A stretch of 64,000 nucleotides of DNA from NCBI RefSeq assembly GCF_006345805.1, contig NC_042997.1:28830001-28894000 (forward strand), read 5' to 3'. The translations under genes were made by a program, and so were the position numbers. The DNA is from Octopus sinensis. Lineage: Eukaryota. Shown one piece after another: positions 24,217 through 57,365 of this stretch. Position 1 is the first letter of the stretch; each line of letters opens with the position of its first letter. A model generated the notes under the pieces. That model was not told the origin of the DNA. It worked only from the letters and a program-made list of their open reading frames with translations, and did no database searches.

Positions 24217-24259
24217 CCACTACAATCGTTTCTTGTCTTGATCGACAATCTTCAGGTGG
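24217..24259 (-). ncRNA. Minimal type-I hammerhead ribozyme (canonical core)
   Basis: Exact mirror of 24324-24366. Confidence 0.8.
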
Positions 24260-24323
24260 ACTTCCAATAATTCAGTGTCAAATTATGAAGTACTTCATAA
24301 TTTGACACTGAATTATTGGAAGT

Positions 24324-24366
24324 CCACCTGAAGATTGTCGATCAAGACAAGAAACGATTGTAGTGG
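24324..24366 (+). ncRNA. Minimal type-I hammerhead ribozyme (canonical core)
   Basis: CCAC-CUGAAGA-UUGUC(GAUCAA)GACAA-GAAA-C(GAUU)G-UA^GUGG; predicted cleavage after 24362. Confidence 0.8.
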
Positions 24367-24894
24367 CGGTTTTTTTGACTATTTATTAAAATTTTATGTA
24401 TTGATTAAGTCTTTCCTTGTTTGTTTTGCAACATAGTGGTTTTGTCTCTAATAATATTTTATATATATATATATATATATATATAATATATATATATATT
24501 TATATTTATATATATACACACATACATACATGTGTGTCTTTATATACGACATATGTACATACACACACACATATATACACATATACATGAACGTATATAT
24601 ATATATTGTTAATAGCAAATTTACTCCCAAGAATATTTTGTTATAGTTCTACATATATCCTTGAGGAAATTTAATACCACCTCCATAGGAAATAATAAAT
24701 AAATTAAACGCCTGAAAATCTGTTGCAACGCGATCAAACGGCGATAATATGAATGTTCTATAACAGGAGAATGCAGTGAATGTAATAAAACTTCCTAAAC
24801 GATCTCTTAATGACCATCTTGTGTTAGTAGGTAATCTAAATTTAAATTTCCGATAAAATTTCATATTAATTTGTTTTGTAAATACTAGCTTTAT

Positions 24895-25082
24895 CATTAT
24901 TTCAACTCTAGGCACAAGGTCTTGAAAATGTTTGACGAGACGGGCTAGTCGATTATATCGACTCCGAAAGGATGAAAGGCAAAGGCATATTCGTTGGAAT
25001 TTGAACTCAGAACCTAGCGGCAGAATAAATATTGCTAAGCGTCTCGTCCGGCGTGCTAAAGATTCTGCCAGCTCGCCGCCTT
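24895..25082 (-). mobile_element. SINE family C
   Basis: gtcgattatatcgactccgaaaggatgaaaggcaaag...ctgccagctcgccgcc. Confidence 0.85.
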
Positions 25083-25169
25083 AACACTAGCTTAACATTT
25101 ATTTTACTAAACTTTCTATTATTTTAAAATTAATTAAATCAAAGATTATGTCTTTCAATAGAAATATCA

Positions 25170-25565
25170 TTTTGTACACTAGGCGCAAGGGGTGCAATTT
25201 TTAGGGAGGTTGCCAGTGGATTAGATTGACCCCAATATGAAACTGGTTCTAAATTTATCGACCCTAACAGGATGAAAGGAAAAATCGACCTCGGTGGAAT
25301 TTGAACTCAAAAGGTAAAGACAGACGAGATACCTATTTCTTTACTACATACAAGTGGCTAAACACAGAGGGGACAAACAAGGACAGACAAACGGATTAAG
25401 TCGATTATATCTACTCCAGTGCGTAACTGGTACTTATTTAATCGACCCCAAAAGGATGAAAGGCAAAGTCGACCTTGGCGGAATTTGAACTCAGAACATA
25501 ACGGCAGACGAGATACCGCTAAGCATTTCGCCCGGCGTGCTAACATTTCTCCCAGCTCGCCGCCT
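25170..25565 (-). mobile_element. SINE family C, dimeric form
   Basis: Two ggatgaaagg...gaatttgaactca units joined by gatacctatttctttactac; head at 25545-25565. Confidence 0.85.
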
Positions 25566-26193
25566 TCTCTCAACTAACAAGCAGCGCCATAATTGTTAAA
25601 ATGGTGAGTGCTCTGTTACCTCGAGCGCCGAACTAATTTCTCTTGTCGGAGAATAGACTCCACCAATCATAAACGACATGCTCCATTCATATAAGTGCAA
25701 GTCAGTTGCGGCTTAGAAATTTGTATTAAATCTCTTGTTGAACTGATTGCACAATATAATATAACCTTTCTCACACAACCATAAATTTTGTTCTAATATA
25801 AACTAAAAGTAATTTAAATGTTTTATGGTTCTTTGCATTATCTAAGTCAATAGAAGTTACTCAGAATACTCTTGCCAATAACAATACATCTGCATCTAGA
25901 ACGGGCGGAAGGAATTAATAATTTAATGAACCATAATATACCATTTTCGTTTCCTTTCGGCTGTCGAGTTTTGGTGGATCATATGTGCTGTTATTCGTTT
26001 AGTGCATGTGAAGACATAAGGCCTTAAATCTCTTCATATTAACATGACAATTTCACTTTCCTGCAAAATAAGGCAGGTCAGACTACATACATTTTCAAGA
26101 AGAACGTTGTATTTTTATCGTAGCAAAACATAGAATTTATATCATTCTTCATTTCCTGAACCAATCAAACTTTAGAGAAATAGCAGAAAATAT

Positions 26194-26567
26194 TTTGTTT
26201 TTGGATTTTGTTTGCAAGATTCTTTATATGAGTTCGTGTGTTGAAGCATATTCTGTTGTGTCTGGGGAGAGTCATTCTCTTTTAGTGCCTTATTATTTAA
26301 CACACTCACCGGTAAAATTTCTACTTATTTCTTATTTTTATTTTCTAAAATTTTCGTTGCATCTTGCAACGTTTTCAATAGTCTTGACTCTGTTCGTTAT
26401 TTACACAGTGTAAATAACGGACAGAGTCAAGATTATTGAAAAGGTTGTATGTAAGACACAACGAAAATTTTAGAAAATAAAAATAAGAAATAAGTAGAAA
26501 TTTTACCGGTGAGTGTGTTAAATAATAAGGCACTAAAAGAGAATGACTCTCCCCAGACACAACAGAA
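26194..26567 (-). mobile_element. ORF-less fold-back element: 57-nt tail plus palindrome 26251-26567, with 10-bp TSD
   Basis: Arms 26251-26406 and 26408-26567 around centre base 26407; TSD cagaaaatat at 26184-26193 and 26568-26577. Confidence 0.85.
26345..26381 (-). ncRNA. Hammerhead-like motif, U3-A8 core variant (diverged mirror copy at 26433-26473, + strand)
   Basis: CUA-UUGAAAA-C-GUUGCA(AGA)UGCAAC-GAAA-AUU-U^UAG; palindromic stem III AAUU; stem I only 3 bp. Confidence 0.5.
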
Positions 26568-54648: not shown

Positions 54649-55051
54649 TCTTTATATATAAAAGAAAGGTTGTGTGTCTGTCTACTCCGATTTAGATTCC
54701 TAACTACTCCCACATTTTGCGATGCAGTTTAACCAAAACCGGGTATTTTATAGTCGTGATTCATATCGAGCCCTTCTGGGTATTAGCGCGCGTCTACGAT
54801 GAGTCTACGATTTTAAAAATAATTTACCATCATTTTTTTCCATTTTAATGTTAATGCATTTTTTCGCTATTATATAAGGGAAGTACCTCTCTAAAATGTC
54901 TACGATGAGTCAACAATTTAAAAAAAAAATTTACCATATTTTTTTTTTCCATTTTTAATGCATTTTTTGCTATTTTTTGGCTATAACTCTCTAAAAATGC
55001 TTTATAGTTATTTCCCTTACAAACCCGAGCAATGCCGGGCGATACTGCTAG
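54649..55051 (+). mobile_element. Non-autonomous Helitron (403 bp)
   Basis: A|TC start (tctttatatataaaag), 3' hairpin cccgagcaatgccggg, CTAG|T end, no TSD; internal duplication of about 105 bp starting gtctacgatgagtc. Confidence 0.85.
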
Positions 55052-55221
55052 TATCAAATATAACTGCGCTTTCACTTTCGGTTTCAGTATTTTTGTTGTA
55101 AACTGAGTAAAAGTTTTTATCTGAAAAATTAAGACAAATGTACGCTTATCCACTTAAATATTATAGAACGAAAGAGCGCAACAAAATTATCTTTAAAAAA
55201 TGTAGAAACGATACTTTTAAT

Positions 55222-55649
55222 ACTCTTTACTCTTTTACTCTTTTACTTGTTTCAGTCATTTGACTGCTGCCATGCTGGAGCACCGCCTTTAATCGAGCAA
55301 CTCGACCCCAGTACTTATTCTATCGGTCTATTTTGCCGAACCGCTAAGTGACGGGGACGTAAACACACCAGCATCGGTTGTCAAGCAATGCTAGGGGGGA
55401 CAAACACACTCACACAAACACACACACGTATATATATATATATATATATATATATTATATATATATATATACATATACATATATACGACGGGCTTCTTTC
55501 AGTTTCCGTCTACCAAATCCACTCACAAGGCTTTGGTCGGCCCGAGGCTATAGTAGAAGACACTTGCCCAAAGTGACACGCAGTGGGACTGAACCCGGGA
55601 CCATGTGGTTGGTAAACAAGCTACTTACCACACAGCCACCCCTGCGCCT
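55222..55649 (-). mobile_element. Full-length SINE family A
   Basis: Reverse complement of 22763-23165; tail (tactcttt)n; internal (CA)/(TA) tract. Confidence 0.9.
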
Positions 55650-56319
55650 AATATTGACGAAGGCATAATAAAAAAAGGTTTCTATTATTTCTTAGAATAC
55701 AAACATTCTTTTGCTCCACAGAGACATGTTTTGGTTAAGTGTTGAAAAATTCGGAATGTAAGAAGGCAAAACTGTTACAATTTGGATAGATCTTCTCTAC
55801 GAGAAATATTTCGATACAATTACACTTAGGCACGCGCATACAAGCATACAGATACATTCAGGCATGTGTTTATTTGCGAATGTCTATTTTATTGACAGTG
55901 ATAGTAATTCGGTAAAATATTCTCTCTTTAAGCTGTTTACATACATTTCCATGCGTAGTTGTATCTCATAATTCATGAATTATCAGAATTAGCATTGTAA
56001 GAGCAACAATCCATGTCATAGCTATATCTAAACAGATAAATAAGGAAACCAAGAGGAAAATTAGGAGAAATGGAAACCGAACAGTGAAGTCAAAATCTAT
56101 ACATTACAATCTTAACATTTTTAGTGACATTTTGCTTAAATGTCCCCAGATTTTATGTGTACGGAAATACCTAGCAGCCATATACATGCATACACTGATA
56201 TCTGTCCTTATGTGCGCACAATAATACAAATCTCAAATCTATCTAACACCAATTCCATCCTCTCTCCTCTCTCTCTTTCTTTATATATATATATATATAT
56301 ATATATATATATATATATC

Positions 56320-56623
56320 ACGTGATCACGTGACCGACCAGACCATCAGATGTTGTTACACATCGCTGGTCACAGTGCGTTCGCATTGTTTTAGCCTTCG
56401 AATGACGCCACCCCGCTGGCTAAGCGAGCAGGCCAACAGAAGAAATAGTGGGAGAAAGAGTGGTGAAAGAGTACAGCAGGAATCACCACCCCCTACCGGA
56501 GCCTTGTGTAGCTTTTTAGGTGTTTTCGCTCAAGAAACACTCACAAGGCCCGGCCTTGGAATCGAAACCCCGATCCTACGACTGCGAGTCCGCTGCCCCA
56601 ACCACTGGGCCATTGCGCCTCCA
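56320..56623 (-). mobile_element. tRNA-derived SINE family D inserted in (TA)n
   Basis: Minus strand tggaggcgcaatggcccagtggttggggcagcggactcgcag...gtttcgattcc (A and B boxes); tail (cacgtgat)n. Confidence 0.85.
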
Positions 56624-56825
56624 TATATATATATATATATATATATATATTATATATATATATATTATATATATATATATAATATATATATATATATATA
56701 TATATATATATATATATATATATATATAATATATATATATATAGTGAGAGAGAGTGGGGAACGAACAAGATATATAAATAGATAGAGATAGAGATAGATA
56801 CACAGACAGATACAGAGAGATAATA

Positions 56826-57010
56826 GCAACTATTCCTCCGAGGCATGCCCCTATAAGGCCGGTTTCCCGAATTCGGGTGCGTAAATATTCCATCATGCTG
56901 CACAGGACGATGGTCCACTTATTGCCAGATGTGTGAATTGGAGCAACGTAAAATTAAACACGTGCCCGAAATCGAAACAACAATCTCACGATCTTACGAT
57001 GAGCGTCATA
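56826..57010 (-). mobile_element. Diverged CORE-like SINE remnant
   Basis: gaattggagcaacgtaaaattaaac...cgatcttacgatgag resembles the reverse complement of the family B head. Confidence 0.55.
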
Positions 57011-57089
57011 CATATAAACTATGTGCCTCTGTCTGTCATTCTCTCCCTCTCTCTCTCTTTCTCTGCTAATATATATATATATATATATA

Positions 57090-57365
57090 TGATAAATATC
57101 AGAGTGAGTTATCAACAGTAGCAGAAGCACATCGTGATGTAAATATGCCATTTGAATATGGCTAACCCCTAAGGGTGGATGCTACTGTAGTTTTTAGCCC
57201 CAGGAAGACGTCTCCTCCAGCTGGCTATAGACACACTTTCTGTACCCTATCAGTATTTGCAAAGGGAAGCCATTCTTCCCGTCTTCAACTTATGATACAC
57301 ACGGACCCGAGTTTCAAGGTATTGACCTATCATCAGCGTGTGACAATCACAGCTGTCGATAGGAA
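57090..57365 (-). mobile_element. Single-arm relative of the 35071 fold-back element (pLTR-like), retaining the complete hammerhead
   Basis: aatatggctaacccctaagggtggatgctactgtag...tttgcaaaggg...tgatacacacggaccc aligns to 35136-35288. Confidence 0.8.
57298..57342 (-). ncRNA. Minimal type-I hammerhead ribozyme (canonical core, GUC site)
   Basis: CACACG-CUGAUGA-U-AGGU(CAAU)ACCU-U-GAAA-CUCGG-GUC^CGUGUG; 6-bp stem I; self-complementary stem III ACUCGGGU. Confidence 0.85.

Follow-up and report, generated by a model that had tools for sequence, protein, structure and literature searches.

Minimal hammerhead motifs with C-G, U-A and G-C pairs at positions 3 and 8 in PLE end repeats of Octopus sinensis

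Introduction

Positions 3 and 8 form a Watson-Crick pair in the catalytically arranged core of the hammerhead, and this pair positions the 2'-OH of nucleotide 8 to act as the general acid. A first-pass annotation of one stretch of octopus DNA proposed that hammerhead cores with C3-G8, U3-A8 and G3-C8 pairs lie within a single window, and that their complementarity reflects selection on catalysis. The question raised by this locus is whether such motifs are genuine, which elements carry them, and what has kept the two positions complementary when the letters themselves changed. Small hammerhead variants of Penelope-like retrotransposons (Penelope-like elements, PLEs) that cleave as dimers are reportedly, to judge by its title, the subject of a study by Lünse, Weinberg and Breaker in RNA Biol in 2016.

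PLE minimal hammerheads (min-HHR) and the U3-A8 pair are already published, in 2011 and 2014 (PMC3088659, PMC4209133). Natural U3-A8 covariation was reported by Perreault et al. 2011 (PMC3088659), who also mention a U4C variant. Minimal motifs were described in the pseudo-LTRs of metazoan PLEs by Cervera and De la Pena 2014 (PMC4209133), including U3-A8 PLE families with about 1,300 matches in Schistosoma mansoni.

Sequence and searches

The window, that is, the whole 64,000-nt stretch analysed, corresponds to positions 28,830,001-28,894,000 of the forward strand of NC_042997.1 (Octopus sinensis, GCF_006345805.1). It was searched with a strict hammerhead descriptor in which N3 and N8 were left free, using 40 dinucleotide-shuffled windows as a null. 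The genome sample was a systematic 1.2 Mb drawn from contigs C1-C10 only, for which positions 3 and 8 of the descriptor were likewise free. The identity of PLE frames was based on RT and GIY-YIG-like motifs together with weak Pfam matches below the curated cut-off. An Rfam scan of the window (E<=10) returned 137 matches, none of them to a hammerhead, and only microRNA-like ones on palindromes and microsatellites. Since the published PLE minimal motifs came from pattern descriptors (PMC4209133), an Rfam match was not treated as defining for this minimal subclass.

Hammerhead motifs of the window

The five annotated cores are all present, namely CUGAAGA at 24328+ (family A), CUGAUGA at 57336- (B), UUGACAA at 43470+ (C), UUGAAAA at 26378- (D) and GUGAACA at 36544+ (E). 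The accompanying claim, that each core is followed by a stem II, GAAA, a palindromic stem III and a closing stem I, holds for families A to D, but not for the copy at 36544, where no in-register GAAA is found (Table 1). This copy is damaged: it has GGAA after stem II (A13 is a G at 36572) and a stem I mismatch at 36584, where the commonest family E letters at the matching positions are A and C, respectively. The hammerhead core (U4 G5 A6, A9, G12 A13 A14, A15.1-U16.1 and H17) is intact in families A to D of the window and in typical E copies, and only the E copy of the window departs from it, at A13. Stem II measures 4-6 bp and stem I 3-7 bp, the stem III palindrome is 4-8 nt long in all five families, and A9 is followed by one additional nucleotide before stem II in C, D and E. 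In family A the stem III palindrome spans 24354-24361, with a cut predicted after A24362; in family B a U faces a U at the base of stem II. Site-specific self-cleavage after H17 is predicted for the motifs of the five families.

Table 1. Coordinates of hammerhead motifs and associated PLE features within the window
Feature	Positions	Strand	Details
Family A 3' ends, head-to-head palindromic insertion	24120..24463		172-nt arms, 99% complementary, no spacer
Family A hammerhead, mirror copy	24217..24259	-	Match at 24255-
Family A hammerhead, minimal type I, C3-G8	24324..24366	+	Descriptor match; core 24328-24334, GAAA 24351-24354
Family D hammerhead, U3-A8, U17	26345..26381	-	Extra nucleotide after A9; stem I just 3 bp
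Family D second copy, inverted, stem II disturbed	26433..26473	+	Match at 26436+; inverted pair spans 26251-26567
Family E PLE end piece, 5'-truncated	36484..36664	+	Between microsatellites
Family E hammerhead, G3-C8, U17	36537..36587	+	Extra G after A9; damaged copy
Family C PLE reading-frame remnant, GIY-YIG-like endonuclease	42659..43120	+	Pfam PF01541 E=0.004, below curated cut-off
Family C hammerhead, U3-A8	43464..43506	+	Core 43470-43476; extra A after A9; predicted cut after C43500
Family B hammerhead, C3-G8	57298..57342	-	Core 57336-57330; predicted cut after C57304

With the strict descriptor, five matches were obtained in the window (two in family A and one each in B, C and D), all of them Watson-Crick at 3/8. 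The 40 shuffles together gave 9 matches, or 0.225 per window, among which 4 were Watson-Crick. The first-pass annotation had considered that shuffled AT-rich sequence might yield such motifs at a similar rate; the rate was far lower, in the 1.2 Mb sample as well, where 25 motifs were found compared to 0-3 in shuffles (mean 1.0), a 25-fold excess. A looser descriptor gave 0.63 matches per shuffled window, and its G3·A8 look-alike at 38670-, a pattern with a single genome match, is probably due to chance.

In energy folding, C, D and a typical E copy adopted the hammerhead stems, which were not predicted for A, B or the E copy of the window. A palindrome-mediated dimer was predicted only for family A and the window E copy, and intermolecular pairing also involves stems I and II. 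Within the window, no motif is accompanied by another of its family on the same strand, and none lies in a same-strand tandem array, so that the arrangement is not that of a non-LTR retrozyme.

Location in PLE end repeats

Each motif belongs to the 3' end repeat of one dispersed PLE family, and the five families are unrelated or distantly related. PLE frames were found upstream of the motif in all five, at several loci each for C, D and E and at one locus each for A and B. The family C frame remnant stops about 350 nt before the hammerhead, the distance being 347-395 nt at five other loci, and at other loci of family E 1.0-1.2 kb separate its end from an RT plus GIY-YIG-like frame upstream. 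A homologue search with a piece of the family E protein returned 14 proteins. Families A and D form head-to-head inverted pairs in the window, and such pairs occur at many loci elsewhere; PLE insertions are known to be 5'-truncated and partly tandem or inverted (PMC8557442), which is also what is seen here. The family A palindrome is placed between (TA)n tracts, and the best genome matches of this family (at least 40) are all near 100% identical, indicating that family A is young. An assembly artefact behind the palindrome was ruled out, as the inverted layout recurs at many loci with varying spacers.

The likeness to the published min-HHR (PMC4209133) extends to type I topology, a short stem I, an additional nucleotide separating A9 from stem II, a tiny palindromic stem III, C, U or A at position 17, the location in PLE end repeats, and the occurrence of solo motifs and opposite-strand pairs.

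Pairing at positions 3 and 8

Among the 25 motifs of the 1.2 Mb sample, 20 were Watson-Crick at 3/8, comprising 7 C-G, 9 U-A, 4 G-C and no A-U pairs. At the family level the proportion was 18 of 20, compared to a permutation mean of 8.8, and none of 200,000 permutations was as high, a test that overstates independence as the families are related; 11 of the 20 are defined by a single descriptor match. The proposal that positions 3 and 8 stay complementary is thus borne out for families, but not 'in every case', since Watson-Crick pairing is lacking in roughly 10% of the copies for E and 6% for D. These proportions come from the first 100 of 3,206 genome matches to the family E pattern with 3 and 8 free, and the first 100 of 1,710 matches to the family D pattern, in which 89 and 94 copies, respectively, were Watson-Crick. 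In contigs of four organisms, no variant at 3% or above was found at G3 or C8 of family E. We infer that selection on catalysis may lie behind the complementarity.

Changes at 3/8 could be followed between related lineages. D and E are sister families, with proteins 44-55% identical, and their motifs align with U-A in one and G-C in the other at 3/8, accompanied by a U-A/C-G swap in stem II. The family B end (C3-G8) is homologous to three U3-A8 ends, and its stem I covaries within this lineage; compensatory stem changes, as expected of a hammerhead, are therefore present in both cases. Another two copies differ from each other by a C-G/U-A swap at 3/8, family 11 shows a U·G state, and E sub-families differ in their loops and have a compensated stem II pair.

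Family E is the only G3-C8 family among the 20. Present in thousands of copies, its G3-C8 form is likely to represent a new natural hammerhead variant, for which cleavage is predicted. The Fig. S3 alignment of PMC4209133, in the portion available, has no visible G3-C8 core, whereas here a G3-C8 family of thousands of copies stands beside a U3-A8 sister. The accessible text of PMC3088659 shares with our families the U3-A8 pair, as well as the U4C change seen in families C and 5, but contains no mention of G3-C8. In the hammerhead of the Anolis Poseidon PLE, whose cleavage is protein-assisted, activity is lost with engineered C3G or G8C alone and partly recovered with C3G/G8C (PMC11167929, 2024); G3-C8 is there a laboratory rescue mutant, whereas in family E it is the natural majority state. 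Engineered cases alone turned up in the literature covered, which did not include Lünse 2016, where such cores may be listed.

Mismatched copies

Doubly changed family E copies were Watson-Crick in 2 of 14 instances, none being C-G or U-A, so there was no enrichment for pairs, and a search for compensatory sub-families within family E found none. Copies with G3·G8 numbered 81, compared to 13 with G3·A8 and 6 with C3·C8, which is about tenfold more than decay predicts, and the excess was present on four loop backgrounds. A single origin of G3·G8 was considered, but on a tree of 63 E copies the 4 G3·G8 copies required 4 changes, with weak support. U4C was found in 10 of 38 family C copies, also occurs in family 5, and forms sub-lineages. 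From the G3·G8 excess and the frequency of U4C in family C, we conclude that damaged cores were multiplied.

Discussion

The reading we consider probable is that five dispersed PLE families carry minimal type I hammerheads in their 3' end repeats, and that the 3/8 pairing has been maintained by selection, over the long term, for a self-cleaving core that works, probably as a dimer or with the help of a protein. An active master element would be transcribed through tandem end repeats; two motifs might then pair via the palindromic stem III, or the protein of the element might aid folding, and the cut would trim or release the element RNA. If any Watson-Crick pair keeps the geometry, lineages could have drifted from C-G to U-A, with the U·G of family 11 as an intermediate, and that of family E to G-C. 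Only the masters would be under selection, across many rounds, and genomic copies, including those of the window, would mostly be truncated relics that decay freely.

An alternative that we judge rather unlikely is that the fold is real but selected mainly as a structure through which the PLE RNA binds protein or positions the template; cleavage would then be weak or unnecessary, most of all in the G3-C8 family. In vitro cleavage of the published PLE minimal motifs is poor (PMC4209133), and for one reconstituted PLE, that of a lizard, hammerhead mutants leave insertion in vitro unimpaired and no reads end at the cut site (PMC11167929). The multiplied G3·G8 copies on several loop backgrounds and the U4C sub-lineages point the same way, as do the genomic copies continuing beyond the predicted cut site, whose templates were therefore uncut there. 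However, the 3-8 pair belongs to the catalytically arranged core, and it is conserved together with U4, G5, A6, A9, GAAA and U16.1 across families whose proteins are only about 30% identical, for which catalysis is the simplest explanation.

Selection could also have maintained U3-A8 while G3-C8 arose in family E by an accident of history, as a crippled core that hitch-hiked on a successful element and is complementary by luck. A single G3-C8 family among 20 implies one event, the passage from U-A or C-G to G-C takes two transversions via a mismatch, and the double mutant rescues activity only partly (PMC11167929, PMC8495972). Against this, E sub-families with different loops and a compensated stem II pair share all the other core letters, the 7-bp stem I and the 6-nt palindrome of stem III, and the G3-C8 form is maintained in four organisms, which makes an accident very unlikely. 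A chance origin of the motifs from AT-rich sequence is hardly credible: the yield of the loose descriptor shows that such matches arise, and the look-alike at 38670- is probably one, but for the five families this origin was ruled out by the shuffle comparisons in the window and the 1.2 Mb sample, the fixed place of multicopy families behind PLE frames, and the covarying stems.

A bolder reading can be put forward only tentatively, as a possibility that we would not favour at present. Family E would be the first abundant natural hammerhead with a reversed (G3-C8) core that cleaves, and, with its U3-A8 sister and the over-represented G3·G8 copies, it would record the crossing of a mismatch valley inside a retrotransposon, cleavage being needed only occasionally or supplied by a dimer partner.

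A search requiring CUGANGA misses three of the five window families, as the first-pass annotation had stated. In an unbiased sample of this genome it also fails to find 13 of the 20 intact motifs with a Watson-Crick 3/8 pair; counts of animal hammerheads obtained with positions 3 and 8 fixed may therefore be much too low. Conservation of the tertiary pair at the family level, together with the multiplication of broken cores, suggests that cleavage matters in the long term and not at each insertion. The D and E families and the G3·G8 copies constitute a natural series for testing whether PLEs need their hammerhead.

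Hammerhead motifs in the window

The window lies on contig C1 of the 2.72-Gb assembly, has 34% G+C and is rich in microsatellites and mobile-element fragments. On inspection of the sequence, the five hammerhead cores claimed by the first-pass annotation, named A to E after their families, were all found in place (see table). A strict descriptor, in which positions 3 and 8 were free and U4, G5, A6, A9, GAAA, A15.1-U16.1, H17 and both stems were required, found five motifs (two of family A, one each of B, C and D); the shuffling check proposed by the annotation set these against 0.225 motifs per shuffled window (40 shuffles). 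The E motif was missed because A13 is G in the window's copy. A looser descriptor (background of 0.63 matches per shuffle, 30 shuffles) recovered it, together with a look-alike on the minus strand at 38670, which is probably a chance match; its pattern occurs once in the genome. An Rfam search of the window listed no hammerhead.

Features of the window (a dot marks a non-Watson-Crick combination)
Position	Strand	Feature	Remarks
24328	+	Hammerhead core, family A	C3-G8
57336	-	Hammerhead core, family B	C3-G8
43470	+	Hammerhead core, family C	U3-A8
26378	-	Hammerhead core, family D	U3-A8
36544	+	Hammerhead core, family E	G3-C8
24020-24500		Family A region	
38643-38673	-	Look-alike	G3·A8; stem III unpaired
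End ~350 nt upstream of motif C		GIY-YIG-like frame	Pfam E=0.004, below cut-off
35155-35418		Inverted pair of family B-related ends	79% to 57134-57266; break exactly at the hammerhead, so core absent
36747-36801	-	Partial motif of a further hammerhead family: its 3' half, with GAAA, the stem III palindrome and one strand of stem I	Truncated by the LINE-type remnant
36812-38085		LINE-type reverse transcriptase remnant	
53166-53839		Tandem 184-nt SINE-like repeat	Inverted relatives at 24952-25566; we take it to resemble an octopus/cephalopod SINE
60510-61118, 12450-12947		DNA-transposon-like remnants	190-nt inverted arms, helix-turn-helix-like frame

Repeat families and their setting

A genome search, with 615-3,080 first-look candidates per motif and 40 scored for each, assigned the five motifs to five separate dispersed repeat families. 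The exact patterns of E and D occur at 3,206 and 1,710 places in the genome, and reversed control patterns for the two gave zero genome matches. Frames resembling reverse transcriptase (RT) with a C-terminal GIY-YIG-like part lie upstream of the motifs at 0.6-0.9 kb for D and 1.0-1.2 kb for E (several loci each), and at about 0.6 kb for A and B (one locus each); the frame-to-motif spacing of C recurs in five other loci. We take these to be Penelope-like element (PLE) frames, a naming that rests on motifs, layout and background knowledge because Pfam gave one weak RT match among four frame fragments. In the window, families A and D form head-to-head inverted pairs, the same layout as the inverted truncated copies described for PLEs in the sections consulted of PMC8557442. 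Dispersal, upstream frames and inverted pairs together argue that the five motifs are minimal hammerheads of PLE end repeats.

Family A is present in dozens of identical copies, mostly as head-to-head palindromes inside (TA)n tracts. It is very young, and no other family is as good a candidate for an element still active today. A transcript spanning the A palindrome would fold into a 172-bp hairpin, burying the motif. In energy folding, stems I and II formed in C, in D and in a typical copy of E, and did not form in A, B and the window's E copy. Within the window, none of the motifs is accompanied by a second one of its own family on the same strand. Two other loci show composite layouts. At L157:6325-8857 (minus strand), a near-full PLE frame is found about 400 nt downstream of a family B hammerhead. 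It shares only about 40% identity with the frame that precedes B in L158; one PLE may have inserted next to another. A 5-kb tandem duplication contains D and E ends arranged tail to tail (L155:1212-1635 and 6256-6679).

The 3-8 pair across families

The annotation had held positions 3 and 8 to be complementary in every case. Three tests on the sequences agree that the pair is kept at the family level; the claim fails for single copies, which decay freely.

An unbiased sample of 120 evenly spaced 10-kb stretches from ten contigs (C1-C10, 1.2 Mb) yielded 25 strict-descriptor motifs; ten shuffles gave 0-3 each, with a mean of 1.0. By 3/8 state, C-G accounted for 7, U-A for 9, G-C for 4, A-U for none, U·G for one, C·A for 3 and U·C for one; of the C·A motifs, two come from a C-G family that shows CpG decay. 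No A3-U8 family was seen in the sample; of four possible Watson-Crick pairs, three are in use. A second set of 226 descriptor matches in 2.0 Mb, biased toward A-E and with overlapping loci counted, grouped into 20 families. Assigned by hand, the commonest pair was C-G in 10 families, U-A in 7 and G-C in one, the other two being unpaired singletons. When position 8 was permuted, 8.8 pairs arose on average and none of 200,000 tries reached 18, a result that overstates the strength because families are related and 11 of the 20 rest on a single match.

Homologous ends carry different pairs. D and E proteins share 44-55% identity (C and D about 28%), and their motifs align, with U-A in D and G-C in E at positions 3/8 and a U-A/C-G exchange within stem II, in an alignment of seven chosen rows where stem I of D is out of register. 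The family B end (C-G) aligns over some 200 nt with three U-A ends, with covariation in stem I too. Two copies 78% identical carry C-G and U-A, the second being damaged at G12, and both U-A and U·G occur in a further family, family 11. In contigs of four organisms, family E has no variant of at least 3% at G3 or C8, and the window's E copy is seen to carry rare variants at 36572 and at 36584.

Decay and multiplication of broken cores

Read by eye, the first 100 E matches had G-C in 89 copies, G·U in 5 and a mismatch in 6, and U-A stood in 94 of the first 100 D matches. Among 14 E copies altered at both positions, only two were Watson-Crick, both A-U, with no C-G or U-A. One fixed E context gave 1,862 G3-Y8 copies (C8 in 97 of the first 100) and 53 copies altered at position 3 (33 A, 14 U and 6 C, the last being C3·C8). 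Changes at position 3 of E agree with the measured decay spectrum. At position 8, 81 G3·G8 copies were counted genome-wide versus 13 G3·A8, about ten times more than decay predicts (p about 5e-21, copies being taken, perhaps wrongly, as independent). The G3·G8 copies (for example at L048:1533-1616 and L152) occur in four loop backgrounds, and some adjoin RT-endonuclease frames. Local duplication accounts for some, since 26 of the 81 sit on two contigs; in a tree of 63 E copies, the four included do not group. U4C likewise marks sizeable sub-lineages, in 10 of 38 family C copies (loci L001-L030) and 9 of 20 matches of family 5 (for example L243 and L303), two of them in overlapping loci. The G3·G8 excess and the U4C share thus indicate that broken cores were multiplied.

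Known and probably new features

The PLE hammerhead system has been described before, and so has the U-A swap: the parts consulted of Cervera and De la Pena 2014 (PMC4209133) describe minimal hammerheads and a U3-A8 variant, and those of Perreault 2011 (PMC3088659) a natural U3-A8. The supplementary alignment lines consulted of the former hold no G3-C8 core. In the text of the open-access papers covered, G3-C8 appeared only as engineered cases (PMC3884650, PMC8495972, PMC11167929), and the portions consulted of bioRxiv 10.64898/2026.07.22.740005, PMC6765202 and PMC10085705 held nothing bearing on it. Family E, abundant and naturally G3-C8, has a sister family with U3-A8 and includes G3·G8 copies that have multiplied; it is likely a new variant.

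Maintenance of the pair

According to the sections consulted of PMC6155905 and PMC8495972, G12 serves as base, the acid is the 2'-OH at nucleotide 8, and C3G partly rescues G8C. PLE minimal hammerheads are described as showing no activity when monomeric and weak activity when dimeric (PMC4209133). For a lizard PLE, the portions consulted of PMC11167929 report that insertion in vitro does not require cleavage; they also report that hammerhead cleavage requires the element's protein and that C3G/G8C gives partial cleavage rescue. That the fold is kept as a structure, without cleavage, seems to us rather unlikely.

We favor cleavage by active masters, which in Octopus sinensis would cut their own RNA via hammerheads that are paired or folded by protein. 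This would happen often enough for lineages in which the 3-8 pair is lost to vanish in the long run; short-lived broken sub-lineages would still spread. Any Watson-Crick pair would be tolerated: the route from C-G to U-A can go through U·G, and that to G-C would need a mismatch step, of a kind that the G3·G8 copies show is survivable. With fair confidence, such cleavage is what probably keeps the 3-8 pair, in any Watson-Crick form, in these lineages over the long term.
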